Assembly (NCBI GenBank): GCA_038245905.1
Contig: JBBRRY010000005.1
Coordinates: 72,742-136,741 of the forward strand
DNA length: 64,000 nucleotides
Origin: Thermoanaerobaculia bacterium
GTDB lineage: Bacteria > Acidobacteriota > Thermoanaerobaculia > UBA5066
Reading direction: 5' to 3'
Shown here: positions 47,498 through 62,209 of the stretch, one piece after another
Layout: each line of letters begins with the position of its first letter
How positions within the stretch are numbered: the first letter of the stretch is position 1
The notes under the pieces: model-generated
The model's input: the letters and a program-made list of their open reading frames with translations, nothing else
Databases searched by the model: none
Told to the model about the DNA's origin: nothing
Program-made: the position numbers and the translations under genes

Positions 47498-47657
47498 GTA
47501 TTGATCTGCTATCAAGATGACTCATCCCGTCCTGTCGTAGCTCCATGAAAGTGTCGACTACGACGAAAAAGGGGAAATTTCTATTGAGCGTTGACAGACC
47601 TGGACGTTGGGAAACGGGACGGCGGCAGCAAAGAGGGCGCTCGCGCAGCCGCCGGCG

Positions 47658-48134
47658 TCACGACTGCTTTGTCACTTTGTCGGTCGTGCCCCTTCGGCGG
47701 AGCACGAAGAGAGACAGTGTGATCGCCACGAGCAGCGCCGAAAGAACGGCGAGCTCGGGCACGAGCTGTGGGGGAGGTGCCTGTCCGGTTGCCTGGCCGA
47801 ACTCCGCTGTGAGGATCAGCACGCGCCTGATCGCCGCGATGAGCCCGACGAGGAGGAACGGCTCTGGAGTGACCGCATGCTCCTTGAACGACACCTGAAC
47901 CGTATAGAGAAGCTCGACGACGAGGAGGATCAGGAGAATCCGGTCGAGGAGAGGGATGATTTGTGTGGCCAGGTCACCGGAAAAGAGACTGCTGCCGAAG
48001 CGGATGATCGTGATCACCAGAAGGGCGACAGCGCTCCCGGCGAGAAGTACGCCGAGACCGACGTAGACGAGATCTTCAACCGCCGCGAATCCGCGGGCGA
48101 TCAGGGTGCGCGTTGGTGGCGATTCTGCCGGCAC
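47658..48134 (-). CDS. PsiE-like (phosphate-starvation-inducible) membrane protein
   Basis: LLILLVVELLYTV, EPFLLVGLIAAIRRVL. Confidence 0.85.
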   Translation of the reverse strand: MPAESPPTRTLIARGFAAVEDLVYVGLGVLLAGSAVALLVITIIRFGSSLFSGDLATQIIPLLDRILLILLVVELLYTVQVSFKEHAVTPEPFLLVGLIAAIRRVLILTAEFGQATGQAPPPQLVPELAVLSALLVAITLSLFVLRRRGTTDKVTKQS

Positions 48135-48206
48135 GTTTCCTCCGAGCGCGTCATGTTTAGCATACGTCCGTCAAAGCCGCCTCGACCGGAGCGGACGGGT
48201 TTCGAC

Positions 48207-48295
48207 TGGTACCGGAGGAGGGACTCGAACCCTCACGGCTCTTTTGAAGCCTGGGGATTTTAAGTCCCCTGCGTCTGCCATTTCGCCACTCCGGC
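48207..48295 (-). tRNA. tRNA-Leu(TAA)
   Basis: GCCGGAGTGGCGAAATGGCAGACGC, GGGGA-CTTAAAA-TCCCC, long variable arm, CCA. Confidence 0.96.
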
Positions 48296-48340
48296 GCCGC
48301 GAAGCTTACGCCGGAAGGCGGACCGGAGGGAGTGCGGGAG

Positions 48341-48416
48341 TGGAGGCGACGGTCGGGGTCGAACCGACGAATGAGGCTTTTGCAGAGCCTTCCCTTAACC
48401 ACTTGGGTACGTCGCC
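48341..48416 (-). tRNA. tRNA-Cys(GCA)
   Basis: GGCGACGTACCCAAGTGGTTAAGGG, AGGCT-CTGCAAA-AGCCT, GGTTCGACCCC, CCA. Confidence 0.96.
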
Positions 48417-48453
48417 GTCCCGTTCGGAGGCAGAATGTTAGCAGGCTCCGGCG

Positions 48454-49425
48454 TCAGCTCGACATCATGCGCGCGAGGGCGAAGAGGGAGGGGTCGAGAG
48501 GTTTCGTCCCCGCGGCGACGTCGTCGAAGGGGGTAGACGACACGACGCCCTTGAGCTGGCCGACGAGCACGCCGGCCTCTCCCGCCACGAGTCGCCGGAC
48601 GGCCTCCGCCCCGAGCCGTGTCGCAAGGAGCCGGTCGAAGGCCCCTGGCGAACCGCCCCGCTGCACGTGCCCGAGCTGCGTGACGCGGAGGTCGAAGCCG
48701 AGCCGCTTCTCGTTCTCACGGAAGTATTGCGCGAGCGCACGGGCGTTGTGGCGCGCCCCCTCGGCCACGACCACGATCGCGTGCCTCTTGCCTCGCTCGC
48801 GCGAAGCGTAGAGCTCCTGTGCGAGCGCCTCCGGGCTCGTCTCCATTTCCGGGATCACGATCGCCTCTGCTCCGCCGGCGATTCCAGCCACCAGCGCGAG
48901 GTACCCGCAATCGCGCCCCATCACCTCGACGAGAAACGCCCGCTCGTGCGACGAGGCCGTCACCTTCAGGCGGTCGATGGCCTCGAGCGCGATGTTGAGG
49001 GCCGTGTCGACGCCGATCGTGATGTCGGAGCCCGGCAGGTCGTTGTCGATCGTCGAGGCCACACCTACCACGGCGAAACCGGCCTTTGCCAGCATGTTCG
49101 CGCCCATCTGCGAACCGTTTCCGCCGATCACGACCAGCCCTGTGACGCCGCGAGCCTTGAGCACGCCGAGCGCCTGCTCGCGTCCCACGGGCGTCTTGAA
49201 CGCCTCGCAGCGGGCACTGCCGAGAATCGTGCCGCCCTGCTGGATGATTCCGCCGACGTCTCGCGGGCCGAGCGGGATCAGCTCGCCGCCGAGGAGGCCC
49301 GCGAAGCCGTGGCGGACTCCGGAAACGGTCCAGCCCTGCGCGATGCCGGCGCGCACGACCGCGCGGATTGCCGCGTTCATGCCGGGCGCGTCGCCTCCGC
49401 TCGTGAGAACGGCCAGGTGGCTCAT
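48454..49425 (-). CDS. pfkA: ATP-dependent 6-phosphofructokinase
   Basis: LTSGGDAPGMNAAIR, GGTILGSAR, TIDND, VEVMGR, LGHVQRGG. Confidence 0.95.
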   Translation of the reverse strand: MSHLAVLTSGGDAPGMNAAIRAVVRAGIAQGWTVSGVRHGFAGLLGGELIPLGPRDVGGIIQQGGTILGSARCEAFKTPVGREQALGVLKARGVTGLVVIGGNGSQMGANMLAKAGFAVVGVASTIDNDLPGSDITIGVDTALNIALEAIDRLKVTASSHERAFLVEVMGRDCGYLALVAGIAGGAEAIVIPEMETSPEALAQELYASRERGKRHAIVVVAEGARHNARALAQYFRENEKRLGFDLRVTQLGHVQRGGSPGAFDRLLATRLGAEAVRRLVAGEAGVLVGQLKGVVSSTPFDDVAAGTKPLDPSLFALARMMSS

Positions 49426-49447
49426 GGGATCTCCTTTCGGCCCCGGT

Positions 49448-50818
49448 TCATGCGGGAGCGGCAAACGGCCACTCGGATTTCCGGCGGGCCGTAACGAGGT
49501 ACGCGACGATGCCGGCGCCGAGAACAGCGAGCCCGGCCGCCTTGAATCCCTTCTCGGGCGAGAACAGGACGAAGCCCCACAGGAGGAGCGCGACGAACGC
49601 CGGCAACGGGTAGAGCCACATGCGGAACGGCCGAGCGAGATCCGGTCGTGTCTTCCTGAGGACGAGCGCCGCCGCGACCTGCGCGATGAACGGGATGATC
49701 GCCCGGATCGACACGATGGCCGAGACGACGACCTTGAGGTTCAGGAACGAGAACAGGGAGGCCGCGCCGCCGAGCGCGAGGAGCGCGACGACGGGATAGC
49801 CCTCCGTCGGATGCAGCTTCGCGAACACCGGGAAGAAGTTTCCGTCCCGCGCCGCGGCGAAGAGAATGCGCGAATAGCCGAGCGTCAGAGAGAATACCGA
49901 CGCGAACGCGGTCCACAGGATGAGGCCCGTGACGAGGCGCGCGACGGGCCGCCCCGCGAGGACCGCGACGAAGTCCGCGACCGTGGATTTCGAGCTCATC
50001 GCCTGCTGCATCGGGAGGACCGACACGATGCAGGCGTTCATCAGAATGTAGAGGACCGCCACGGAGAGAATCGAGATCACGATGACGCGCGGAATCGTCT
50101 TCGTGGGCTCCTTGATCTCCTCGGCGAGATAGCAGACGTTGTAGTAGCCGAGGTAGTCGTACACGGCGAGGATCAGCGCAAGGCCGAGTCCTCCGAAGAT
50201 GCCCGCGGGCGGTGGAATTCCAGGCGCGGACACGATGGGCGCCTCCCAGAACCGGAACGCCTCGAGCTTCAGGTGCGGGAGGCCGAGACCGATCACGATC
50301 CCGAGCGTCGCGAGGACGCCGATCCAGAGAACGATTGAGAACTTGCCGATCGCGCCGATCCGGCGCATGAGGAGCAGCGTGACGGCGATGCAGAGGAGAG
50401 ACGCGACGGGCGCCTCCCAGCGGTCCGGGATCTCCGGAAAGATGTAGTGTAGGTAGCGCGAGAAGCCGATCGCGCCCGAGGCCATCGAGAGAGGCGCGGA
50501 GAAGATGATCTGAAAGAGAAACAGGAAGGAGATGAGCCGGCCCCAGCGGGCGGGACCGTACGCTTCCCTCAGAAAGGCGTAGGAGCCGCCGGCGCGCGGC
50601 AGCTCGGCCGAGAGCTCGGCCGTGACGAGCCCGTCCGCGATGGCGAGGACCGCGCCGAGGATCCACGCGCCGAGCGCGCGTCCCCCGCCCATCGCGGCGA
50701 GAATGAGAGGAAGGGTCACGAAGGGCCCGATCCCCACCATGTCGATGATGTTGAGCGCGGTGCCCTGCCAGAGGCCGATGTCGCGCTTGAGCCCGCCCTC
50801 CGCCGCCGGTGCCGCCAT
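49448..50818 (-). CDS. APC-family amino acid permease
   Basis: DMVGIGPF, ELSAELPRAGGSY, about 12 TMs, RPFRMWLYP. Confidence 0.9.
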   Translation of the reverse strand: MAAPAAEGGLKRDIGLWQGTALNIIDMVGIGPFVTLPLILAAMGGGRALGAWILGAVLAIADGLVTAELSAELPRAGGSYAFLREAYGPARWGRLISFLFLFQIIFSAPLSMASGAIGFSRYLHYIFPEIPDRWEAPVASLLCIAVTLLLMRRIGAIGKFSIVLWIGVLATLGIVIGLGLPHLKLEAFRFWEAPIVSAPGIPPPAGIFGGLGLALILAVYDYLGYYNVCYLAEEIKEPTKTIPRVIVISILSVAVLYILMNACIVSVLPMQQAMSSKSTVADFVAVLAGRPVARLVTGLILWTAFASVFSLTLGYSRILFAAARDGNFFPVFAKLHPTEGYPVVALLALGGAASLFSFLNLKVVVSAIVSIRAIIPFIAQVAAALVLRKTRPDLARPFRMWLYPLPAFVALLLWGFVLFSPEKGFKAAGLAVLGAGIVAYLVTARRKSEWPFAAPA

Positions 50819-50892
50819 CCGCGCACCTTACATGAGCACGAAGAAGGAAATCGGAGAGAATTATTTCTTCGAAAGGGTTAGGTGCCGGCGCC

Positions 50893-51355
50893 TCAGGTCA
50901 GAACTTGAGACCTCCGCCGAGCCGCACCATGTCGTCGGCCGTGAAACTTGCCCATCGGTCCCAGACAGCTTTCAGGAGCCAGGCGGGCCGATCGAAGTAG
51001 ACGCTGGCCCGTTCCGAGGCGCACGTCGACGACCGACGAGGCGTACACCCTGTCGTAATGGTCGAGATGCACGCCCGCGCCGAAGGCGATTGAGCCGTTC
51101 AGGTTCGATAGCGCCCAGCCAGCCCGTGACGTCGCCGAACCGCTTTCGAATGTTGACGTCGAATTGGATCTGATGGCCGAGCACATATAGCTCGGCGGAC
51201 GCCTTGCCGTTCAGGTCGTCGGCCCTCTCGACGGGCGTCGAGGGCGCTTCCGTTGACCCATCGTCTTCCGCTCCGACCGCCCCGTGCGCCAGCAACATGC
51301 CGACAAGCAGGACCCGAGCGCCCGAGTCCCAGTTCGCCACGTGGGTTCTCACCAT
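50893..51355 (-). pseudogene. Degraded secreted/outer-membrane protein remnant in two frames
   Basis: Signal-like N-terminus and beta-strand pattern (ELYVLG..FDVNIRKRFG..TGWLG) continuing in another frame (IAFGAGVHLDHYDRVYA). Confidence 0.4.
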
Positions 51356-51390
51356 GCCTATTCTCGCGTAGAATTCGCGACTTGAGTCGC

Positions 51391-51744
51391 ATGCGACGCC
51401 TAGCCGCCAGATCCGCCGCCGCACTCCTCGTCGCGGCCCTTCTCGCCCCTGTATTCGAGGCGGGTGCTGTGCTGGCCGACGACCTGAAGGACCTCGCCGC
51501 GGGCAACACCGGCCTCTCGGACGACCCCGAGACGCCCGGCCCCGACCTCTACGCTCCCCGCCCCTGGGGCGACGACGTCCCGGACATGCCTTCGCTCCTC
51601 GTGCTCGACGCGCCCGCCGACGCCGCGGAGGCGTTCGAGCCGCGGCCCGTCGAGCCCGTCGTTCCCGCCTGCCGCGATCTCTCCCCCTGCGACCCCAATG
51701 CGCGCGCGATCGCGGCGCGCGGTCCCCCGCTTCTCCTTTCTTAG
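51391..51744 (+). CDS. Secreted leader protein with C-terminal RGPP arrest-like motif (DUF2946/CzcI-like position)
   Basis: TAGAAT 51369-51374; signal-like N-terminus; acidic Pro-rich body; ends ARGPPLLLS. Confidence 0.75.
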   Translation: MRRLAARSAAALLVAALLAPVFEAGAVLADDLKDLAAGNTGLSDDPETPGPDLYAPRPWGDDVPDMPSLLVLDAPADAAEAFEPRPVEPVVPACRDLSPCDPNARAIAARGPPLLLS

Positions 51745-51799
51745 CTCTTCCCGCCGAAGACGCTGAAGAGGCGGCGCCCGACGCCGCCGGAGGAGACCC

Positions 51800-53086
51800 G
51801 TGAGGACCCTGATCTGCCTGATGGTGGGCACTCTCGCCGTTCCCGCGTTCTGTGCCCGCGGCGAGGAGCCGCCGCGCGTGACGCTCGCCGAGGCGCTCCG
51901 CCTCGCGCGCGAGAACAACCCCGACCTCCTCGGCGCCCGGGCCGACGTCGAGTCCGCGCGCGCCCAGAGGACGGCCGCCGCGCTACTCCCGAATCCCGTC
52001 CTGTCCTACTCGACCTCGAAGATCCCCACGGACGGGACACGCGCAGGCACCGTCTACGGCAACGACTTCTACAGCCGGGCCTACGACACGGTCGTGTCCG
52101 CGTCCCAGCTCGTCGAGATCGGCGGCAAGCGCACGAGCCGCCGGACCTCGGCGGACGAAGGTGTGGCCGGCGCCTCCGCGCGGCTCACGGATGTCGCGCG
52201 GCTGCTCGACGCGGCAGTCGTGCGGGCGTACACCGCCGCCGGCGTGACGCGCGAGAGCGCGATCATCGCGCGCGAGACGGCTGCCTCGTTTGGAAAGACC
52301 GCGGGGATCGCGGAGGAGCGCGAGGCCGCGGGAGAGATCTCTCTCTCAGAGAAGACGCAGATCGAAATAGCCGCCGGCCGCTTTCTCGCGGATGCAGCAC
52401 AGGCCGACCTCGCGTACGCCAACTCGGCCCGCACCCTGGGTGCGCTGTTGAGCCTGCCCGCGGCCTCCCCGGCCGAGGATCTCGAGGCCGCTCACGAGAT
52501 CATTTCGCCCAACCCCGCGGGAACGCCGGATGACGACGAGACCTGGCTCGCGCGCCGACCCGATCTCGCGGCGCTCGAGGCGGCTGTCCGAAAAGCGGAG
52601 GCCGAACTCGCCCTCCAGAAGGCCTTTCGCGTGCCCGACCCCACGCTCCTCGCACAATACGAAAGACAGCCGCCGGACCAGCGGAACACAGTGGGGTTTG
52701 GCGTTTCGTTCCCGCTGCCCGTTTTCAACCTCAACGGAGGCGCGATCCGCGCGATCCAGGTGGCTGTAGAAACTACCAAGCGCGACCTCACCCGCGGACG
52801 CGTCCGAGTCCGGCAGGACCTCGCCGCCACGCGCGACGCCCTCGAAACCGCGCGCGCACGGGCCGTCCGCCTCGTGAACGATCTCCTCCCGAAGTCCAAG
52901 ACGGTACGCGACACCGTGCGCTTCGCGTACGAGCAGGGCGCCGCCTCGCTTCTCGAGCTCCTCGAAGCCGAACGCAACGCCAACGAAATCCGCCTCGCCG
53001 CGGTCTCCGCGCGCGGGGATCTCATCACCGCCCGTGTCGACTTCCTCACCGCGCGGCCCGGCGCGCCCGCCCAGGAGACACCATGA
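51800..53086 (+). CDS. czcC: TolC/CzcC-family outer membrane factor
   Basis: GGAGGAG RBS; LAEAL..A..NNPDL, LPNP, PLPVFN.N.G.I, YEQGAASLLELLEA. Confidence 0.9.
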   Translation: MRTLICLMVGTLAVPAFCARGEEPPRVTLAEALRLARENNPDLLGARADVESARAQRTAAALLPNPVLSYSTSKIPTDGTRAGTVYGNDFYSRAYDTVVSASQLVEIGGKRTSRRTSADEGVAGASARLTDVARLLDAAVVRAYTAAGVTRESAIIARETAASFGKTAGIAEEREAAGEISLSEKTQIEIAAGRFLADAAQADLAYANSARTLGALLSLPAASPAEDLEAAHEIISPNPAGTPDDDETWLARRPDLAALEAAVRKAEAELALQKAFRVPDPTLLAQYERQPPDQRNTVGFGVSFPLPVFNLNGGAIRAIQVAVETTKRDLTRGRVRVRQDLAATRDALETARARAVRLVNDLLPKSKTVRDTVRFAYEQGAASLLELLEAERNANEIRLAAVSARGDLITARVDFLTARPGAPAQETP

Positions 53087-54255
53087 AGACTCGCGTCATC
53101 GCCACCGCGTTCGCTGCGGTCCTCGCCGCCATGCCCGCGGGGTGCCTGAAGACGCCCTCGCCCTCGGCCGATCCGCCGGCGCCTCGCGTGGACGGCGACG
53201 CCATCACGTTCTCCGAGGGCGCGCCGCAGCTTCCCTCCTTCGCCGTCGAGGCCACCGTCCGCGAGACTGCGCCCCCCGTCTCCGTGACGGGGCGCCTTGC
53301 GTGGGACGAAGACGCGACCGTCCGCATCCTGCCGCCCGTCGCGGGGCGTATCGTCGCGCTCAAGCGCACCGTCGGCGCGCGCGTCTCCGCCGGCGACATT
53401 CTCGCGGAGCTCTCGTCGCCCGACTTCGGGCAGGCGCAGGCGGACGCGGCCAGGGCCGCGGCCGACCTCGCGTCCGCAACCCGAACACGAGATCGCGCCT
53501 CGCGGCTCACCGAGCGCGGCGCCGCGCCCCGCAAGGACCTCGACGCAGCAGAAGCGGACCTTGCCCGCGCGAGGGCCGAGTCCTCTCGCACCTCCGCCCG
53601 CCTCGCCCGCTGGGGCGGCGATCTCGCCGGCCTCGGCGACCCCACGCATGGCCTCGACCAGCTCTTCCGTCTTCCCTCGCCGCTCCCTGGAGTGGTCGTC
53701 GAACGCAACGCAAACCTCGGCCAGGAAGCGCGGCCGGACGCGACGGCGCCGCTGTTCGTCGTCTCGAATCCACGAAGCCTGTGGGTCTGGCTCGACGTGA
53801 CCGAGCGCGACCTGTCGCTCCTCGCGCCGGGTGACCGGCTCGCCGTCCGCTCCGCAGCGTGGCCCGTGCGCGTCTTCGAAGGCCGCCTCGCGCTCGTCGG
53901 GGATGCGCTCGACCCGGCGACGCGCACCGTGCGCGCCCGGGGCCGCATCGATAACCCCGAGGGTCTTCTGAAGGCCGAGATGTACGTGACCGTCGAGGTC
54001 TCCGGCAAGGGCGCACCGTCCGCGGCCGTCGTCCCGGCCCGTGCCGTCCTTGGCGACGGGGCGGCGCGCTGGTGCTTCGTGGAGGACGGACCCCGCCGAT
54101 TCCGTCGGACGCGCGTCACGGTCGGGTCCGAGCGCGGTGGAAAAGTTCCCGTCCTCTCGGGCCTCTCCGCGGGTGCACGCGTCGTGACGGACGGGAGCCT
54201 CCTCCTCTCGTCGCTCTACGCGTCGGCGGGCGAGAAGACGGGAGACAAGAAGTGA
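53083..54255 (+). CDS. czcB: RND periplasmic adaptor (CzcB family), likely lipoprotein
   Basis: PAGC lipobox-like, PVAGRI, LDPATRTV, LKAEMY. Confidence 0.9.
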   Translation: MKTRVIATAFAAVLAAMPAGCLKTPSPSADPPAPRVDGDAITFSEGAPQLPSFAVEATVRETAPPVSVTGRLAWDEDATVRILPPVAGRIVALKRTVGARVSAGDILAELSSPDFGQAQADAARAAADLASATRTRDRASRLTERGAAPRKDLDAAEADLARARAESSRTSARLARWGGDLAGLGDPTHGLDQLFRLPSPLPGVVVERNANLGQEARPDATAPLFVVSNPRSLWVWLDVTERDLSLLAPGDRLAVRSAAWPVRVFEGRLALVGDALDPATRTVRARGRIDNPEGLLKAEMYVTVEVSGKGAPSAAVVPARAVLGDGAARWCFVEDGPRRFRRTRVTVGSERGGKVPVLSGLSAGARVVTDGSLLLSSLYASAGEKTGDKK

Positions 54256-57200
54256 TCCGCGGCGTCGTCGCGTGGGTGCTCCGCCGCCGGGCCATCGCTC
54301 TCGCGCTCCTCCTCGTCTTCGTCGTCTTCGGCGTCCGCGCGTTCCTGAGACTCCCCGTCGAGGCGTATCCCGACGTCACGAACGTCCAGGCCCAGATCAT
54401 CACTCTCTTTCCGGGGCATGCCGCCGAGGAGGTCGAGCGCCTCGTCACGATTCCGCTCGAGAACGAGATGAACGGGATCCCGAAGCGCGCGTCCATGCGC
54501 TCGATCTCGATTTTCGGGCTCTCGGTCGTCACGATCGTTTTTGAGGACGACGCGGACCGCGCTTACGTCCGAAACCAGTCCTTCGAGCGCCTCCAGTCCG
54601 TAAACCTCCCTCAGGGCGCGCAGGCAAACCTCTCACCCGACTCGACGCCGGTGGGCGAGATCTACCGCTACACGCTTGCGGGCCCGCCCGCCTTCTCCGC
54701 TCTCGAGCTCAAGTCCCTCGAGGACTGGGTCGTCGAACGAAAACTCCGGACGGTACCCGGCGTCGTCGACGTCGTGGGCTTCGGAGGTCCCACGAAGCAA
54801 TACCAGGTCAACGTGGACCCCCTCAAGCTCAAATCCTACGGCCTCACGCTCGCACAGGTCTTCGACGCGCTCTCGAAGGGCAACCGCAATGCGGGCGGCG
54901 CCTACATCGAGCACGGCGCCGAGATGTACGTCGTACGCGGCCTCGGCCTCGTCCAGTCGACGGACGACATCGGCGAGATCGCGGTCGTGACGCGGAACGG
55001 AACGCCCGTCAGGATCCGCGATGTCGCGTCCACGGGCGTCGGCCCGCGCATCCGACTCGGGCGGGTCGGGAAGACCGTCGGCGGATCCGACGAGGACGAC
55101 GTGGTGCAGGGAATCGTCCTCCTGCGCAAGGGCGAGAACGCCCTCGAGGTCCTCGAGCGCATCCGCTCGAAGGTTGGCGAAATCAACCGCTCCGGCCTCC
55201 CGCCGGGTGTGACGATCGTCCCGCACTACGACCGCACCGCGCTCATCGACCGGACTCTCCGCACCGTGCGCAAGAACATGGCCGAGGGAATCGGGTTCGT
55301 CCTCGTGATTCTCGTCGCCTTCCTCGGGATGAAGAACGCCCGATCGGCGCTCGTCGTCGCGGCCGTTGTTCCCCTCTCCCTCCTCGGCGCATTCCTCCTC
55401 CTCGACCTGCGCGGGATCCCTGCGAACCTGATCTCGATGGGCGCGATCGACTTCGGGATCATCGTGGACTCGGCTGTCGTGGTCGTCGAGAACCTCCTCC
55501 GGATTCTCGCGGAGCGCCGCGAAAAGGTCCGGTCGATCTCCGTGGCGATCGTCGAGGCCGTGGACGAGGTCGGCAAGCCCATCCTCTTCTCGAAGGCGAT
55601 CCTGATCACGGCGTTCTTCCCGCTCTACACGCTGCAACGCGTGGAGGGCAAGATCTTCAGGCCGATGGCCCTCACGCTGACGTTCGCGCTCATCTGGGGA
55701 ACGATCCTCGCGCTCACGATCGTCCCGGTCCTCGCGAGCTTCGCGGTCAAGCGGCGGAAGGGCGCGCCAGGCTCCGCCGTGGAGGAGGAATCCGCGATCG
55801 TCCGGGCCCTCGGCCGCTCTTACCGGCCCGCCCTCGCATTCGTCGTCGATCGCCGCAAAGCAACCGTCGCCGCATCGGCGGTCCTCCTCGCCGCGGGCGT
55901 CGCGACGGCCGCACTCCTCGGCTCCGAGTTTCTCCCGAAGCTCGACGAGGGCGCTCTCTGGGTCCGCGCAACGTTCCCCGGCTCGATCTCCCCGACCGAG
56001 GCGGCCCGGATCACGCGCCAGATCCGGACGACACTCGCCTCGTTCCCGGAGGTGAAGGCCGTCGTGAGCCAGCTCGGCAGGCCCGACGACGGGACGGACG
56101 TGAACGGCTTCGACACGTCGGAGTTCTACGTGGACCTGATCCCCCGCGACGACTGGAAGACCGCGAAGACGCGCGACGCCCTTTCGGACGCGATGAACCG
56201 GAACCTTTCCGCGATCCCCGGCATCGAGCTCACGTTCTCGCAGGTCATCGAGGACAACGTCAACGAGGCCGTGTCGGGCATCAAGAGCGAGCTTTCCGTG
56301 AAGATCTTCGGCGAGGATCCCGCCATCCTGCAGGACCTCGCGGATCGCGCGGCGGCTGTCCTCGAGGGCGTCCAGGGCGCGGCCGACGTCGCGGCCGAAC
56401 GGCTCTCGGGCCAACCGCAGATCCAGATCTCCGTGGACCGGCCCGCGATCGGCCGGTACGGACTCTCCGTGTCGGACGTCGAGACCGTCATCGAGACCGC
56501 GATCGGCGGCGCCGTCGCGACCCAGATCCTCGAGGGCGAGAAGACGTTCGACCTCGTTGTCCGCGTGGAGCCGGGCGCCGTGACGGGCCTCGAGACGATC
56601 CGCGCGATCCCGATCCTCGGGCCGAACGGCGAGAAGCTCACGCTCGGCTCGGTCGCCGACGTCCGCCTCGCGCCCGGCTCGGCGCGCGTCTTCCGCGAGG
56701 AAAACTCGCGGCGGATCGCCGTCAAGCTCTCCGTCCGCGGGCGCGACCTTGGCTCGCTCGTCTCGGAGGCGCAGAAGAAGGTGGCCGCGGCCGTGAAGCT
56801 CCCGAGCGGTTATCACCTCGAGTGGACGGGCGCCTTCGAGAACCAGCAGCGCGCCCTCAAGCGCCTCATGGTCGTTCTCCCCATGACGCTCGCCGCGATC
56901 TTCTTCCTCCTCTTCGCGGCGTTCGACTCCCCACGCCTCGCGACGCTCATCCTCCTGAACGTCCCGTTCGCCGCCGTGGGCGGGCTCTTCGCGCTGCCGC
57001 TCGCAGGTCTCACACTCTCGGTCTCGGCCCTCGTCGGGTTCATCGCGCTCTTCGGAGTCTCCGTCCAGAACGGCGTCCTCCTCGTCGAGCGCATCCGCGA
57101 CCTGCGCCGCGAAGGCAAGCCCCTCGGGGAGGCCGTGACGGGCGGCGCCGTCTCGCGCTTTCGCCCGGTCCTCATGACGGCCGCCATGGCCGCGTTCGGT

Positions 57201-57356
57201 CTCCTCCCGGCCGCGCTCTCGCACGCCGTCGGGGCCGAGACCCAGCGCCCGTTCGCGGTCGTCATCATCGGGGGCCTCGTGACCGCGACGCTGTTGACCC
57301 TGTTCGTCCTGCCTGCCCTCTACGAGCTCTTCGAAGGCGAAGAGGAGGAGTACTGA
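54252..57356 (+). CDS. czcA: CusA/CzcA family heavy-metal efflux RND permease
   Basis: LPVEAYPDVT, NLISMGAIDFGIIVDSAVVVVEN, EFLPKLDEG, RFRPVLMTA. Confidence 0.93.
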   Translation: MIRGVVAWVLRRRAIALALLLVFVVFGVRAFLRLPVEAYPDVTNVQAQIITLFPGHAAEEVERLVTIPLENEMNGIPKRASMRSISIFGLSVVTIVFEDDADRAYVRNQSFERLQSVNLPQGAQANLSPDSTPVGEIYRYTLAGPPAFSALELKSLEDWVVERKLRTVPGVVDVVGFGGPTKQYQVNVDPLKLKSYGLTLAQVFDALSKGNRNAGGAYIEHGAEMYVVRGLGLVQSTDDIGEIAVVTRNGTPVRIRDVASTGVGPRIRLGRVGKTVGGSDEDDVVQGIVLLRKGENALEVLERIRSKVGEINRSGLPPGVTIVPHYDRTALIDRTLRTVRKNMAEGIGFVLVILVAFLGMKNARSALVVAAVVPLSLLGAFLLLDLRGIPANLISMGAIDFGIIVDSAVVVVENLLRILAERREKVRSISVAIVEAVDEVGKPILFSKAILITAFFPLYTLQRVEGKIFRPMALTLTFALIWGTILALTIVPVLASFAVKRRKGAPGSAVEEESAIVRALGRSYRPALAFVVDRRKATVAASAVLLAAGVATAALLGSEFLPKLDEGALWVRATFPGSISPTEAARITRQIRTTLASFPEVKAVVSQLGRPDDGTDVNGFDTSEFYVDLIPRDDWKTAKTRDALSDAMNRNLSAIPGIELTFSQVIEDNVNEAVSGIKSELSVKIFGEDPAILQDLADRAAAVLEGVQGAADVAAERLSGQPQIQISVDRPAIGRYGLSVSDVETVIETAIGGAVATQILEGEKTFDLVVRVEPGAVTGLETIRAIPILGPNGEKLTLGSVADVRLAPGSARVFREENSRRIAVKLSVRGRDLGSLVSEAQKKVAAAVKLPSGYHLEWTGAFENQQRALKRLMVVLPMTLAAIFFLLFAAFDSPRLATLILLNVPFAAVGGLFALPLAGLTLSVSALVGFIALFGVSVQNGVLLVERIRDLRREGKPLGEAVTGGAVSRFRPVLMTAAMAAFGLLPAALSHAVGAETQRPFAVVIIGGLVTATLLTLFVLPALYELFEGEEEEY

Positions 57357-57712
57357 TGCGCTACGTCCTCGGGTTCTTTCCCCCCGACCGTCTCTTCGCC
57401 CTCATCGACGCTCTTTCCGAATCGCACGTCCACGGGCTCACGATCTCCGACGCGCGCGGCTTCGGGCAGGAGCACGATGCCGGGCACCCGGAGCACCACG
57501 AGCACCGAGGAGTCGAGATGACGAAGAAGATCCGCGTCGAGATCGTCTGCGCGGACGAGGAGGTGGCCGGCATCCTCGACGCGCTCTATGCGTCGGGGCA
57601 CAGCGGGCGCCGGGGCGACGGCAAGGTCTTCGTCCTGCCCGTTCTCGACGCGCTCCGCATGAAGACCGGCGAGCGCGGCGACGCGGCACTCGGCCCCCCG
57701 AAGGAACGTTAG
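57356..57712 (+). CDS. PII-family protein with His-rich T-loop
   Basis: GLTIS..RGFG, KIRVEIV, G..GDGKVFV, R.KTGERG; TGATG coupling to czcA. Confidence 0.9.
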   Translation: MRYVLGFFPPDRLFALIDALSESHVHGLTISDARGFGQEHDAGHPEHHEHRGVEMTKKIRVEIVCADEEVAGILDALYASGHSGRRGDGKVFVLPVLDALRMKTGERGDAALGPPKER

Positions 57713-57714
57713 CG

Positions 57715-58890
57715 TCAACCGCGCTTCAGGACGTCCTTCGCGATCGTGTTGAGCTGCATGAAGGACGTGCCCTCGTAGATCTTTCCGATCTTCGCATCGC
57801 GGTACATCTTCTCGAGGGGATAGTCCTTCACGTAACCGTAGCCGCCGAGGAGCTCGAGGGCCTTCGAGGTGCACATCTCCGCGACTTCGGAGCCCTTGAG
57901 CTTCGCGATCGCACCCTCCCGCGCGAACGGCAGGCCCGCTTCCTTGAGGCGCGCCGCGTTGTAGACGGCGAGCCGGGCGCACTCCAGCTCCATGTCCATC
58001 CGCGCGAGCTCGTGCTGGACGGCCTGGAACTGCGAGAGCGGCTGACCGAACTGCTTGCGTTCCTTGACGTACTTCGTCACGTAGTCGAGCGCGGCGCGCC
58101 CGATCCCGACCATCTGGGCGCCGATGCCGATTCGGCCCTCGTTGAGCGTTTCGATCGCGATCTTGTAGCCCTCGCCGACGTTTCCGACGACGTTCTCCGC
58201 GGGGACTTCGAGGCCCTCGAACGCGAGCGCGAGCGTGGAGGAGGCGCGTATTCCGAGCTTGTCCTCTTTCTTGCCCTTCACGAAGCCTTTCCACTGCGAT
58301 TCCACGAGGAATGCCGTGATGCCCTTGTAGCCCTTGCTCTTGTCCACGCTCGCGAACACGAGGAACAGCTCGGCCTCGAGGCCGTTCGTGATCCAGAGCT
58401 TGCCGCCGTTCAGGATCCAGCGGTCGCCCTTCAGAGCCGCCGTCGTCGCAAGGGCGAACGCGTCGGAGCCCGAGCCGGCCTCGGAAAGTGCGTACGCGGC
58501 GACCTTCCGTTTCGCGAGCTGCGGGAAGTACTTCTTGTGAATCGCAGGGGACGCCCACCGCTTGATCGCGTTGTTCACGAGCGTGTTCTGGACGTCCACG
58601 ACGACGGCGCAGGCCGCGTCCACGCGCGCGAGCGCCTCGATGATCGCGACGGAGGTCGTGAAGTTCGAGCCGAGGCCGCCGTACTCCTCGGGGATCTCGA
58701 TTCCCATGAGGTCGAGATCGAAGAACTTCCGGATGAGATCGGGATCCATGACGTTGTCGCGGTCCATCCGGGAGGAGTGGGGGCCGATCGCTTCGACGGC
58801 GAAGTCGTATACGCCTTCGGCGAGCTCCCGCTCATGGTCCCCGAGGACGGAGACCGGAGGGATCGCGGGCGGATTGGTGGTGACGGGCAT
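57715..58890 (-). CDS. Acyl-CoA dehydrogenase (short/branched-chain type)
   Basis: ALSEAGSGSDA, NGGKLWITN, KLGIRAS, LNEGRIGIG, GGYGY, IYEGT. Confidence 0.94.
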   Translation of the reverse strand: MPVTTNPPAIPPVSVLGDHERELAEGVYDFAVEAIGPHSSRMDRDNVMDPDLIRKFFDLDLMGIEIPEEYGGLGSNFTTSVAIIEALARVDAACAVVVDVQNTLVNNAIKRWASPAIHKKYFPQLAKRKVAAYALSEAGSGSDAFALATTAALKGDRWILNGGKLWITNGLEAELFLVFASVDKSKGYKGITAFLVESQWKGFVKGKKEDKLGIRASSTLALAFEGLEVPAENVVGNVGEGYKIAIETLNEGRIGIGAQMVGIGRAALDYVTKYVKERKQFGQPLSQFQAVQHELARMDMELECARLAVYNAARLKEAGLPFAREGAIAKLKGSEVAEMCTSKALELLGGYGYVKDYPLEKMYRDAKIGKIYEGTSFMQLNTIAKDVLKRG

Positions 58891-58975: not shown

Positions 58976-61951
58976 CTAGAAGTCGTAGCGGCCCGAAAAC
59001 TGAAGCGTGCGCGGCGTCGTTGTGAAGCCGTTGAGCGTCGCGAAGGACGCGTTGAAGGTCGTGAGGCTCGTGAAGCGGTTGCCCGTGTTCGTGAGGTTGA
59101 AGATGTCCACGAAGACCGCAAGCGTCCCCGGTCCGACCTTGTAGCCGGCGCCAAATCGGACGTCCACCGTATAGAAGTCAGGCTGACGGAACTGGTTGCG
59201 GCTCGTGACGACTCCGTCGATCGTGGCCCGGTCGGTCGTGTTGCCGTCCTTGTTGTTGTCCGAGCCCGTCAACGCTGAGTACGGACGGCCGGTCTGGTAC
59301 GTGAAGAGAACAGACGAGAACGTGTTGATGCTTCCGAACTGGCGATCGTAGGACGCGTTCGCCGCGGCGCGCCACCTGATGTCGCGGTCCGACGGCGCCC
59401 AGTTCAGCTCGGGGTTGTTGACGTCCCAGAGCGTAAAGCCGGAATAGTTGCGCTCGTTCGAGTCCGTGTCGTAGTCCGAGGCGCGGGTGAGGGAGCCGAA
59501 GAACCGGAACCCCGCCGCAAAATTCTTGCGGAACGACAGCGTCGCGGCTTTGTAGTCCGAGCGTGCATCCGAGGTGTAGACGGTGACGCGGCCGTAGTTG
59601 GCATTGATCCGGTTCGCGCTGCTCGACGAGGAGGACAGGCCGTAGCAGGTAACTCCCGAGTTCGGATCCAGCGTCGTGCAGTTCGCGGCCGGCGACGCGA
59701 CGAGGTTCGCGTCGTTGTTCCGTTCGAGGTTGTAGCCCTTCGCCCAGGTCGCGTCGATGCCCCAAGCGATTCCGAAAAACTCACGCTCCGCTCCAAGCGT
59801 GATCTTGTCGGTGTGCGGGTTCTTGAAGTCGGATGTCATGCTGAAGACGCCTGGGGAAGCAAGCGTCGTTCCAGCCGGAAGGTTTCCGAGCTGCTGGATT
59901 TTCGTCGGGTCGAACGCGGCTCCCCAGCCGGGGGCCGGAAGGCCCCCCGTGGAGCCGGCCGCGTTCGCGTTCACGACGTACTGCGTGCCCTGAACGCCGT
60001 TCGACTGATAGAGCTGAGAGAAGAGAATCTCGGGCGTCCGGCTCCAGTACCGGCCGAGAGAAAGTCGAACGACGCTCTTCGCATCCTTCTCAGGCGACCA
60101 CGCGAAAGAGATCCGGGGCGACCACTGATTATTCGCGTCCGGGATCTGAGAATCGGGCTGGACGAACTTCGCGCCAGGCGTGAGGACCTTGTTCAAGTCG
60201 AGAATGGGGTCGTTCGGGTTGTCGAGACGCTCGTAGCGAAGGCCGAGCGTCATCGTGAGGGCCGGCGTGACGTACCACTGGTCCTGGACGAAGAACGCGA
60301 GCTCCTTCTGGTCGGCATTGAAACGGCCCGCTTGATCGACGGTGAGGCCGTTGAGACCGATGAACTCGCGGTACTGCGTCCACTTGCCCGCGAGGAGGTT
60401 CGCCTTCAGGTTCTCGGCCGTGGCGGTCTGCCCGGTAAAGGCGTTAAAAACGAAGACGCCGCGCCAGTTGCCCTTGAAGATCTGGTCCATCCCGGTCTTG
60501 TTGTAGTCCGCGCCGAGCTTTACGGCATGCGCGCCGAAGAGGAACGTGGCCGTATCACCCACACTGATGCGATTGTCCGTCGCAACGATCGGCAGAAACG
60601 CGACCTCGCCGAAGGTCGCCTGCCCCGTGAGCTGGATCTCGGGCAGGCCGAGGCCCTTGTCGGCACGCGGGATTTCGTTCTTCGCGTACTGGATGTTGAA
60701 GTCGTTGATCGTGCTCTGGTTGAAGATCGCGTTCCAGCTCCCGACGAGAGACGACGTCTTCAGGCCCTCGAGTCCGTTGTGGCTCGTTGTCTGCGTCTGG
60801 CTCGAGGACGTGCCGTTCGGCCCGTCGTAGGTCGCGTAGTTCGCGCGGCCGTAGACCCGATGCTGGTCCGTGAGCTGGAAGTCCAGGCGCCCGAAGAACA
60901 CCTTTCCGTTCTGCTCCTGGATGTAGTTCGTGTCCGTCTGCCCGAGCTTCGGGTAGCGGGCCGCGATGTCCGGATCGGTGACGAGAGCCGACGTGATCGG
61001 AATCGTCGTGGCCTGGAGCTGCTGGTCCCACGCCCCGAAGAAGAACAGCCTGTCGTGAAGGATCGGCCCGCCGATCGACGCGCCAAACTGCTGCGTCTTC
61101 TGGTCGCGCGGGTCCGTGCCGTTCGCGAATTGCGCGGTCGTGGACTGCGGCCGGTTGTAGTAGAACGCCGAGCCGTGGAAGTCGTTGCTGCCGCTCTTCG
61201 TGATGACGTTCACGAAGCCGCCGCCCGAGCGCCCGAACTCCACGGAGGCCCCGTTCTGAATGACCTGGAACTCGCGCACCGACTCCTGCGACATCGTGAA
61301 GGGCGCCCGGCCTTCGGCCGAACCGTCGCCCGAGGAGCCGCCGAAGAACGAGTCGTTGTAGTCGACGCCGTCGAGCGTGACGCTCGTATTGATGCCGCGC
61401 TGGCCGCCGATCGCGATGTTGCCGCGCGAGGTCTCTCTCTGCGCGTTAGGCGCCAGGAGGACGAAGTCCGTGAAGTTGCGGCCGTTGATCGGGAGGCTCT
61501 TGATCACGTTGTTGTCGATCGTGGTCTGGCTCGCGGTCTGCGTCGTCTCGATCGTCGCTTCCGTGGCTGTGACCGTCACGGACTCCGTCTTTGTCGAGAG
61601 GCGCAGCTTGAAGTCGACCGTCGGCGCAGACCCGAGCGTGACGACGACGCGCGCGTCGCTCTGCTTGCCGAAGCCCTGCAGCGACGCCGTCACGGAGTAG
61701 GTGCCAACGGGCACGCTCACGATGCGGTAAACGCCGCGCGAGTCAGAAACGGCGACGAGCGCGAGGCCCGTGTCCTTGTTCTTGGCCTCGATACTGGCTC
61801 CCGGCAGCGGAGCGCCGGTCTCGTCGAGGACCTGTCCCGAAACGCGACCGGTCGTGACGTCGACCTGCGCGAGAACCGGGACCGCCGTGAGAAGGAGGGC
61901 CGCGATCGCCGCGAGGGCGATCGTCAGGCCGAATCGGGGATTCAATTTCAT
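58976..61951 (-). CDS. TonB-dependent receptor (Oar-type, carboxypeptidase-regulatory-like N-domain)
   Basis: Signal peptide, GAPLPGA, LPINGRNF, NVITKSGSNDFHGS, FFVQDQW, WSPRISFAW, terminal YDF. Confidence 0.93.
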   Translation of the reverse strand: MKLNPRFGLTIALAAIAALLLTAVPVLAQVDVTTGRVSGQVLDETGAPLPGASIEAKNKDTGLALVAVSDSRGVYRIVSVPVGTYSVTASLQGFGKQSDARVVVTLGSAPTVDFKLRLSTKTESVTVTATEATIETTQTASQTTIDNNVIKSLPINGRNFTDFVLLAPNAQRETSRGNIAIGGQRGINTSVTLDGVDYNDSFFGGSSGDGSAEGRAPFTMSQESVREFQVIQNGASVEFGRSGGGFVNVITKSGSNDFHGSAFYYNRPQSTTAQFANGTDPRDQKTQQFGASIGGPILHDRLFFFGAWDQQLQATTIPITSALVTDPDIAARYPKLGQTDTNYIQEQNGKVFFGRLDFQLTDQHRVYGRANYATYDGPNGTSSSQTQTTSHNGLEGLKTSSLVGSWNAIFNQSTINDFNIQYAKNEIPRADKGLGLPEIQLTGQATFGEVAFLPIVATDNRISVGDTATFLFGAHAVKLGADYNKTGMDQIFKGNWRGVFVFNAFTGQTATAENLKANLLAGKWTQYREFIGLNGLTVDQAGRFNADQKELAFFVQDQWYVTPALTMTLGLRYERLDNPNDPILDLNKVLTPGAKFVQPDSQIPDANNQWSPRISFAWSPEKDAKSVVRLSLGRYWSRTPEILFSQLYQSNGVQGTQYVVNANAAGSTGGLPAPGWGAAFDPTKIQQLGNLPAGTTLASPGVFSMTSDFKNPHTDKITLGAEREFFGIAWGIDATWAKGYNLERNNDANLVASPAANCTTLDPNSGVTCYGLSSSSSSANRINANYGRVTVYTSDARSDYKAATLSFRKNFAAGFRFFGSLTRASDYDTDSNERNYSGFTLWDVNNPELNWAPSDRDIRWRAAANASYDRQFGSINTFSSVLFTYQTGRPYSALTGSDNNKDGNTTDRATIDGVVTSRNQFRQPDFYTVDVRFGAGYKVGPGTLAVFVDIFNLTNTGNRFTSLTTFNASFATLNGFTTTPRTLQFSGRYDF

Positions 61952-62162
61952 GTGTTCACCTCTGCTGAAATTGGAAAAGAATGAAAGAAAAACGACGGAC
62001 AGACTCGCAGCCGTACGTAAATATCCCGTGAAGAACGGTTCATAATGGGATGTCGACAGCCCCATCCTATCGCGCGCGCACCGGGCGCCGTCAACGGGTT
62101 TCGAGTCTCGCGCCGGGGCAAGAAAAGAACGGGGAGCCTGGGACGAGGCCACGTCCAAATGA

Positions 62163-62188
62163 GAGAGGCCGCCCGGAGGCGGCCTCTC
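62163..62188 (-). terminator. Hairpin after the upstream TonB receptor
   Basis: GAGAGGCCGCC-N4-GGCGGCCTCTC perfect 11-bp stem; weak U-tail. Confidence 0.6.
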
Positions 62189-62209
62189 GTGACTGTGCTG
62201 AAATGAAAG

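Follow-up and report, generated by a model that had tools for sequence, protein, structure and literature searches.

We analysed a 64,000-nucleotide stretch of DNA (hereafter the window) from a Thermoanaerobaculia bacterium (assembly GCA_038245905.1, contig JBBRRY010000005.1, positions 72,742 to 136,741), in which a short open reading frame (ORF) ending in an Arg-Gly-Pro-Pro (RGPP) motif lies directly upstream of an operon that encodes a CzcCBA-type efflux pump and a PII-family protein. This upstream ORF (uORF), referred to here as the leader, is a conserved gene. We propose that it acts as a CutF-type translational switch, in which binding of a cation would prolong a ribosomal stall and turn on a ZneA-like pump, and we assign this reading as a whole a probability of roughly 50%. 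The genes and features of the locus, numbered from the first base of the window, are the following.

51346..51374, + strand: sigma70-type promoter, TTCTCA-17-TAGAAT (one site, against 0.1 expected in shuffled sequences)
51391..51744, + strand: leader gene (uORF), 117 amino acids, unnamed family (profile searches, orthologue alignment)
51391..51477, + strand: Sec-type signal segment, leader residues 1-29 (hydropathy, predicted helix; putative cleavage site)
51478..51591, + strand: conserved acidic core, residues 30-67, candidate periplasmic sensor (D30, D34, D44, P46, T48, P51, D52, Y54, M66, P67)
51616..51717, + strand: sequence-variable Pro/Ala linker of fixed length, residues 76-109, holding a non-conserved C-x5-C (codon differences)
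51718..51729, + strand: putative RGPP arrest motif, residues 110-113 (motif counts in 124 homologues)
51800..53086, + strand: czcC-like outer-membrane factor, 428 amino acids (PF02321, E 2.8e-40)
53083..54255, + strand: czcB-like periplasmic adaptor, 390 amino acids, ATGA overlap with czcC (PF16576, TIGR01730 above cut-off)
54252..57356, + strand: czcA, resistance-nodulation-division (RND) pump of the CusA/CzcA family, 1034 amino acids, GTGA overlap with czcB (TIGR00914, 961.5 bits, cut-off 701.45)
57356..57712, + strand: PII-family protein, 118 amino acids, His-rich T-loop, TGATG overlap with czcA (PF00543, 60.1 bits, cut-off 25)

The leader reads from an ATG at 51391 to a TAG at 51744 and has the C-terminus ARGPPLLLS, with the motif four residues from the end and a gap of 55 nucleotides between its stop codon and the GTG start of czcC (51800). 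The length, C-terminus and gap agree with those of a first-pass annotation of the window, whereas the position that it gave as the start of the system (51369) falls on the base with which the -10 hexamer, and not the ORF, begins. The -10 hexamer is located 16 nucleotides before the leader ATG, which would leave a 5' untranslated region of about 10 nucleotides that lacks a Shine-Dalgarno (SD) sequence. A similar -10 hexamer, read by eye (TAGAAT, TACAAT, TAAGAT, or TAGGAT), precedes the ATG by 16-17 nucleotides in 9/9 loci, and the leader lacks an SD in all nine loci compared. No terminator-like site was detected in 50800-51900, and a scan of 47500-58000 against Rfam identified two tRNAs only. 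The N-terminus, which had been described as a signal-like helix, indeed has this character: the Kyte-Doolittle 11-mer peak is 2.75, the n-region is basic (net charge of +2 over residues 1-29), and an AlphaFold2 model places a helix at residues 2-36 with no fold after it (predicted template modelling score, pTM, of 0.26). Cleavage of the signal would probably follow Ala29 and leave Asp-Asp as the mature N-terminus; Ala29 is present in 98% and Asp30 in 100% of 41 distant family members. Residues 30-80 include 13 Asp/Glu and carry a net charge of -11.

A proline motif near a stop codon proves little by itself, because R[AGS]PP occurs near the stop in 376 of 44,050 stop-to-stop segments of this genome and is frequent in the off-frames of its 68% GC sequence. 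Among 3,172 crudely called genes, by comparison, RGPP was found three times against 26.8 expected, an approximately ninefold depletion, and the leader is one of the three; AGPP in the same set was found 39 times against 45.0 expected. RGPP is also depleted in the Acidobacteriota as a phylum, with a mean bias of 0.076 in the source data of Fujiwara et al. (2025; PMC12992588). Codon differences among eight gap-free orthologues were distributed unevenly along the leader. The RGPP codons differ by 72 synonymous and 0 non-synonymous changes in 112 pairwise codon comparisons, the acidic region by 353 synonymous versus 206 non-synonymous changes, and the linker by 184 versus 453. This codon pattern, together with conservation, rules out a chance off-frame ORF.

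The extent of the family was evaluated with a profile of nine orthologues, which recovered 84 close homologues, and with a wider profile, which gave 147 matches, 120 of them listed and examined. The resulting set comprises 124 sequences and leaves out P0089 (a 1605-residue repeat), P0084 and P0085 (apparent frameshifts), and the porin P0094. Among the 84 close homologues, 78 carry RGPP, one carries RAPP, and five have no motif; in the set of 124 the corresponding counts are RGPP 90, RAPP 27, RSPP 1, QGPP 1, and none 5. Four of the five motif-less homologues end early, as fragments would, and the fifth runs into another frame. RGPP and RAPP interchange between subfamilies while flanking residues vary, and 11 representatives under 50% identity divide into seven with RGPP, three with RAPP, and one with QGPP. 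The tail after the motif is 2-4 residues long in 79/79 motif-bearing close homologues. A single 90% cluster pairs a QGPP member (P0090) with an RGPP member (P0093), a difference that reflects either natural loss of the Arg or an error in sequencing.

Conservation in the remainder of the protein is concentrated in the acidic core. Near-invariant positions in the 41 distant members are A29, D30, D31, D34, D44, P46, T48, P51, D52, Y54, M66, and P67, in addition to R-x-P-P, and the loop can be written for the family as DD-x-x-D...D-[DN]-P-x-T-x-x-P-D-x-Y...D-M-P. The central motif, D-x-P-x-T-x-x-P-D, lies in a core with 7-11 Asp/Glu and no Cys or His in 112/124 homologues, and no Cys or His was found among the invariant columns of the family alignments. 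The distance from Asp44 to the Arg of the motif is 64-67 residues in 119/119 measurable homologues (exactly 66 in 105/119), and that from Thr48 to Arg110 is 62 in 79/79 measurable close homologues, even though the linker in between varies in sequence. The anticipated conservation of RGPP and of its spacing in orthologous loci is thus borne out (RGPP or RAPP in 117/124, fixed spacing). The acidic stretch that the first-pass annotation had called a spacer is present and Asp/Glu-rich, but that label does not fit, as conservation is highest there and it is the Pro/Ala linker that varies. The proposal that acidic residues take the place of a CxxC is supported by the conserved aspartates and by the absence of CxxC from all 84 close homologues (CxxC or CxxxC occurs anywhere in 2/124). 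A C-x5-C near the end is present in the sequence as described, but it occurs in 1/84 homologues, the protein of the window itself, and we therefore rejected it as a metal site.

Searches of Pfam and NCBIfam with the leader and 21 members returned nothing meaningful. None of 21 aligned members matched DUF2946 (PF11162) at E<=1, nor was a match identified in the genome, and the sequence evidence indicates that the leader is not a DUF2946 member. A search for CzcI gave no CzcI-named NCBIfam or Pfam match at E<=1 in 21 members, in libraries whose content of a CzcI model was unchecked. Language-model neighbours comprise clusters named DUF2946, DUF6769, and CzcI, which we treat as a lead only: the closest (score 0.96) is auto-named DUF2946 and has no common Pfam family, and the CzcI cluster scored 0.92 with 77/256 features shared. 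This last neighbour bears on the alternative that the leader is a plain periplasmic partner of the pump, namely a CzcI-like chaperone or modulator, and that RGPP has no regulatory part. According to PMC9973294, CzcI is encoded at this position in Cupriavidus and has no proline motif at its C-terminus. Strong conservation of the core would suit such a partner. The family nevertheless has no NCBIfam or Pfam match, and the alternative leaves unexplained an invariant RGPP/RAPP that the proteome avoids, a variable linker of fixed length, and, as described below, a complement to the downstream SD and a family member that precedes a porin gene. We consider it very improbable.

The taxonomic distribution of the leader is narrow. 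A class-wide survey of 401 genomes detected the family in the genome of the window and in 11/18 others of its genus and in 0/382 of the remainder; two frames with E ~1e-4 (in G208 and G272) lacked the core, were lost with the wider profile, and were rejected. Matches in a phylum sample were likewise confined to the same genus (3/401), and close relatives carry the labels Thermoanaerobaculia or Acidobacteriota. One distant cluster contains a 53-residue fragment labelled Candidatus Methylomirabilis that may be misbinned. No relatives of the leader were found in plasmids or viral contigs. In a first sample of the class, the leader and the PII gene occurred in the same 9/15 members of the genus, and two genomes from other genera had the PII gene without a leader.

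Among 18 distinct loci with DNA, a czcC orthologue lies directly downstream of the leader in 16, the start of a TolC-like gene in one (L086), and a porin gene in one (L085); the latter two loci are those that give the genomic context of the distant subfamilies. The next gene is co-oriented and separated by 55-68 nucleotides in 14 czcC loci, by 83 nucleotides in L085, and by 175 nucleotides in L086, where an 82-residue fragment has no Pfam match and an E of 3.8e-4 to czcC. In L085 (5920-7904) the leader is followed by a stand-alone gene for a Porin_4 protein whose N-terminus resembles a coiled coil, and 8 bp complementary to the porin SD come after RGPP. No homologue of this porin was found in the genome of the window. 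The porin also has a Thr-Pro-Gly-Gly-Pro-Asp loop that resembles the leader core, probably by chance.

These contexts bear on whether the leader could be an export or envelope monitor along the lines of SecM and ApdP, in which pull by Sec would release the stall, the operon would report secretion capacity, proton-motive force, or periplasmic pH, and the acidic core would be a folding or protonation element rather than a metal site. A signal segment combined with RGPP is the design of the Sec-monitoring peptides described in PMC12992588, the core has neither Cys nor His, and both downstream gene types (TolC-like and porin) encode exported outer-membrane proteins. The Sec-linked example in that source, SLIV_07330, however, has no conserved N-terminal motif, whereas the leader core has near-invariant Asp, Pro, and Thr at a fixed distance from the motif; moreover, no sec gene was seen downstream in the 18 loci, and the usual target is a metal pump. 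Export monitoring is therefore quite unlikely in our estimation, and we turn to what the neighbourhood of the pump suggests about the CutF-type switch.

No leader precedes five close sister pumps (CzcA 72-79% identical) for which sufficient upstream DNA was available, and three of these have KdpD/E-like genes upstream. A response regulator and a DUF4118 (KdpD-like) kinase are directly upstream of czcC in L016, a response regulator (by Pfam) and a kinase (by eye) are upstream in L013, and a KdpD-like kinase is one gene away on the other strand in L012; the genes upstream of the sister pump in L007 and L015 are unrelated. The leader occupies the slot where some sister pumps keep a two-component system, in what are few and related cases. 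A histidine-kinase-like gene, identified by eye, is also found before distant czcCBA-PII operons of the Salinibacter/Salinivenus type (L038, L040, L042, L044, L047, L051, and L058). The genes listed or scanned around the operon in the window encode an amino-acid permease, a TonB-type receptor, and an acyl-CoA dehydrogenase, with no regulator among them, in agreement with the earlier remark that none is adjacent.

The identities first given to czcC, czcB, czcA, and the PII gene are upheld by Pfam and NCBIfam, and the junctions between these genes are overlaps of 1-4 nucleotides. CzcA is the only close copy in the crude gene set of the genome, the others being 25-28% identical. The closest solved structure is ZneA (E 5.4e-239, 799 bits), as compared with 2.2e-177 and 595 bits for CusA. 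Residues E136, D173, D613, D616, E624, D668, and E672 of CzcA align with E136, D172, E599, D602, E610, D654, and D658 of ZneA, positions that we take to be Zn ligands. Transmembrane helix 4 carries Asp400, Asp406, and Glu413, which we assume to mark the divalent (ZneA/CzcA) type over CusA. The better match to ZneA and the helix 4 residues point to a pump of the divalent rather than the CusA type, whose substrate would be a divalent cation. ZneA (HME3a) is described as a divalent-cation exporter (PMC7060636, PMC8277102).

A scan anchored on PII recovered 67 loci, of which eight have an orthologous leader before czcC, all ending in RGPP. The PII gene follows czcA within 700 nucleotides in 47/67 of these loci, which span several phyla and mostly have no leader. 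Because PII occurs beside so many leaderless pumps (leader in 8/67), the leader and PII are best viewed as independent modules. In the T-loop, His40 and His47 are present in 11/11 close members and His44 in 10/11, and the His-rich loop is absent from seven distant ones. In the B-loop, G-x-R-G-D-G-K is kept throughout, and His82 hardly varies. A metal-sensing role for the His loop is plausible. By analogy, PII is probably an older, leader-independent, PII-NG-like companion that would tune the pump from the cytoplasm. A literature search on PII-like proteins with CzcA, DUF3240, heavy-metal efflux, or the T-loop found nothing.

How a stall in the leader might affect czcC was evaluated by RNA folding, which adds three features to the locus.

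51732..51739, + strand: predicted anti-SD formed by the final codons of the leader, which a ribosome stalled at Pro-Pro would cover (local minimum-energy folds, partition folding, cross-pairing)
51742..51788, + strand: two predicted intergenic hairpins (~51742-51765 and ~51770-51788) joining anti-SD and SD (folds; both in the RNAalifold consensus)
51789..51796, + strand: Shine-Dalgarno of czcC, GGAGGAGA (sequence)

Local folds show, in 9/9 loci, base-pairing between the SD region and the stretch that immediately follows RGPP, with two hairpins in between. When the mRNA is masked up to the footprint of the stalled ribosome, the cost of opening the ribosome-binding site drops by 3.0-7.2 kcal/mol in 9/9 loci. 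When a ribosome was walked along the leader codon by codon, the mean cost fell from ~13.7 to ~10.7 kcal/mol as the P site reached the motif. Three types of SD were recognised, and the post-RGPP segment fits its own SD type best in 13/14 czcC loci. The same segment has a C+U content of 0.76-0.90 in 13/14 czcC loci. Since the codons downstream of RGPP are able to base-pair with the SD of czcC, a stall would turn czcC on. The folding models, which support this moderately overall and weakly in the window itself, make occlusion of the SD by the last codons of the leader likely.

From these observations we propose the following course of events. A single mRNA carrying the leader, czcC, czcB, czcA, and the PII gene would be transcribed from the sigma70-type promoter, as its conserved -10 suggests, and the four downstream genes would be coupled by their overlapping stops and starts. 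In free mRNA, the pyrimidine-rich codons after RGPP are predicted to pair with the czcC SD across the two hairpins, such that czcC would be off. A ribosome stalled with the prolines of RGPP in its P and A sites, as homologous motifs that have been tested would imply, would cover the anti-SD and free the SD, making the stalled state the on state. The signal segment would thread the chain through Sec, and because spacing to the Arg is fixed, the core of the stalled chain (43-80 residues from the Arg) would be placed in or just beyond the translocon. There it may bind a divalent cation via its carboxylates and so prolong the stall, and the ZneA-like pump would be produced as its substrate, Zn(II) or another divalent cation, accumulates in the periplasm.

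Confidence in these steps differs. Stalling at RGPP is highly probable by analogy: in PMC12992588, seven Streptomyces proteins that carry RAPP/RGPP at the C-terminus were tested and every one arrested, and CruR arrests with Pro-Pro in the P and A sites. Control of czcC in cis by the leader is likely. The odds that the core senses a cation are about even, and, if it does, we lean modestly toward induction of the pump by the cation over repression; we favour binding that lengthens the stall because the target is a ZneA-like divalent-cation exporter.

A number of results weigh against the switch as proposed. The core has no Cys or His, the usual ligands of Zn, Co, Ni, and Cu; AlphaFold2 gives it no fold (with the pTM quoted above), and a search of the PDB with the family profile yielded no family match (best E 0.49). 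RGPP without upstream context was insufficient for arrest, and six of the seven Streptomyces peptides were read through on Escherichia coli ribosomes, as reported in PMC12992588. One family member (L085) heads a porin gene and not a pump. With regard to the RNA, the ribosome walk showed no drop in L004 and a weak one in L003, the three SD types represent only about three lineages, and among the 14 czcC loci only that of the window has an anti-SD that fails to favour the SD type of its own locus. In full-length folds, masking the footprint lowered pairing of the SD window from 0.91 to 0.73 (mean of 16 loci), and from 0.93 to 0.90 in the window of this study. A sliding-window control, in which starts were miscalled in 4/16 loci, did not single out the post-RGPP segment (52/96 control windows pair as well in the window). 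RNAalifold recovered both hairpins and missed the helix of the anti-SD, the register of which varies from lineage to lineage, and no post-RGPP pairing was found in full-length folds of L085 and L086, although L085 pairs in the local fold.

The composition of the core and of the tract that follows RGPP also admits a switch of the opposite sense, in which the stall is the default, a cation would fold the exported core and pull the chain free, and the operon would be on when Ca, Mg, Mn, or Fe(II) is scarce. Carboxylates suit hard cations, and scarcity of the sensed ion would be the condition in which competing metals turn toxic; the C/U-rich tract could then serve Rho. Efflux pumps, on the other hand, are usually induced by excess. 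CruR works by such logic (PMC9426467), and RGPP is the strongest default-arrest core described in PMC12992588. The porin headed by the leader in L085 is a plausible uptake gene, yet this is a single locus, and the intergenic region of 55-68 nucleotides is structured, as compared with 162 nucleotides in cruR. A PII-NG-czcABC operon of Geobacter is reported to be upregulated under Fe(II) limitation, and also under Co(II) stress (PMC7726332). Overall, we judge a scarcity switch to be unlikely and retain the CutF-type switch, with induction by excess, as our preferred reading.

A broader formulation is that the leader is a carboxylate nascent-chain sensor, whose exported Asp-rich loop would read a hard cation (Ca, Mg, Mn, Fe(II), or possibly a lanthanide) or periplasmic pH and would, across the inner membrane and via RGPP/RAPP arrest, set synthesis of outer-membrane channels, mostly a TolC-led pump and once a porin. 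We advance this tentatively, as a possibility with the odds against it. If true, it would extend arrest-peptide sensing beyond the thiol and imidazole chemistry of the copper type, and would indicate what an orphan ZneA-like pump actually transports or what triggers it.

Several features of the surrounding DNA were recorded in passing. The ~500-bp gap between the permease and the promoter contains two ORFs (50893-51355, - strand) that overlap in different frames. They resemble one frameshifted gene for a small exported protein and have no Pfam match. A similar permease ORF is closer to, and directly divergent from, the leader in L003, L004, and L006, so the window's 50893-51355 may be an insertion. 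An OprB-family porin gene is just upstream of the leader on the same strand in L002 (568-1974). The divergent (- strand) neighbour in L005, L008, L009, and L011 is a biopterin-dependent aromatic amino-acid hydroxylase (Pfam on L009), with a major facilitator superfamily-like gene beyond it in some of these loci. Farther downstream in the window (58976-63976, - strand) are two adjacent TonB-dependent-receptor-like ORFs of 1060 (Pfam) and at least 588 amino acids, typical of Acidobacteriota. Elsewhere in the genome, three crude genes have RAPP/RGPP within seven residues of the stop: C2:142103-142810 (+), C2:26827-28038 (-), and C16:25936-26943 (+). The first encodes 235 amino acids, lies directly before a gene on the same strand, and may represent a further element of the arrest type.

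Comparison with characterised systems places the leader, by its sequence anatomy, close to CutF and CruR and within the described class of RAPP/RGPP arrest peptides. The properties used in PMC9973294 to filter for relatives of CutF from Rhodobacter capsulatus (<150 amino acids, PP at most 15 residues from the C-terminus, a Sec signal, and a same-strand neighbour at <1000 nucleotides) are all found in the leader. CutF has a short gap with a structure that shields the next SD, such that the stall is the on state; the gap after the leader is also short, and its folds speak for such a shield in part and against it in part. The commonest downstream neighbours of CutF-like leaders are CusC/CzcC/SilC outer-membrane efflux proteins (PMC9973294). 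The leader differs in that it has no DUF2946 match, and all 29 CutF-like clusters of that source carry Cys and/or His motifs, whereas the leader core almost always has neither. Arrest of CutF occurs at PPP and requires EF-P, whereas arrest of the RGPP type is reported to be EF-P-resistant (bioRxiv 10.1101/2025.02.05.636593, PMC12992588).

CruR (Bp2923, DUF2946/PF11162) of Bordetella pertussis shares with the leader an export signal and a RAPP-type C-terminal motif (PMC9426467). It has a CxxC, which the leader lacks, and requires a fixed CxxC-RAPP spacing. The distance from sensor to arrest site is 45 residues in CruR, and the D-M-P end of the leader core lies 43-45 residues before the Arg, although the motifs differ. 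The 162-nucleotide gap after cruR involves Rho-dependent termination, as opposed to the short structured gap here, and CruR targets a TonB importer, whereas the leader precedes an exporter.

The small secreted RAPP/RGPP uORFs of Fujiwara et al. (2025; PMC12992588) were defined by <300 amino acids, a C-terminal motif, a localisation signal, and a close co-oriented gene, a description that the leader fits. In the source data of that study, RAPP uORFs outnumber AAPP uORFs before CusA/CzcA pumps (50 vs 7, a 28-fold enrichment), RND adaptors (620 vs 148), TolC proteins (530 vs 380), and carbohydrate porins (54 vs 5, a 42-fold enrichment); czc, CusA, TolC, and efflux go unmentioned in its main text. 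Its metal-linked examples use Cys, His, or Met, whereas the leader core is aspartate-based.

For the downstream genes, the clustering of a PII gene with a CzcABC antiporter is the arrangement described for PII-NG (Sant'Anna et al., 2009, as cited in PMC7726332); the likeness of PII to PII-NG is one of gene context, and the His-rich T-loop here is limited to a close clade. The pump finds its best PDB match in ZneCAB/HME3a of Cupriavidus metallidurans (4K0E), with aligned acidic residues. The zne genes are under the two-component system zneSR (PMC8277102, PMC7060636), whose place the leader takes here.

Because arrest-type leaders before CzcC/CzcA (PMC9973294, PMC12992588) and PII beside czcABC (PMC7726332) are already in print, the novelty implied by the first-pass annotation was overstated. 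We found no published description of the leader family or of an acidic-core leader, although the supplements of PMC12992588 (including the RGPP list of its Fig. 4A) and PMC9973294, which we covered in part, could list it. What is new is thus the unnamed leader family with its aspartate-based core; the architecture and the PII companion were known. The metal-sensing arrest leaders described in these sources (CruR, CutF, the 29 CutF-like clusters, and two Streptomyces candidates) use Cys, His, or Met, and the leader combines the same architecture with another chemistry, one that is nearly invariant and kept at a set distance from the stall. PMC12992588 raises the question of what acts on the nascent chain of RAPP/RGPP peptides that do not monitor Sec. 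The leader family is a clean test case for that question: the organism is known from assemblies only, but the C-terminal half of the leader is amenable to work in vitro or in a laboratory host.

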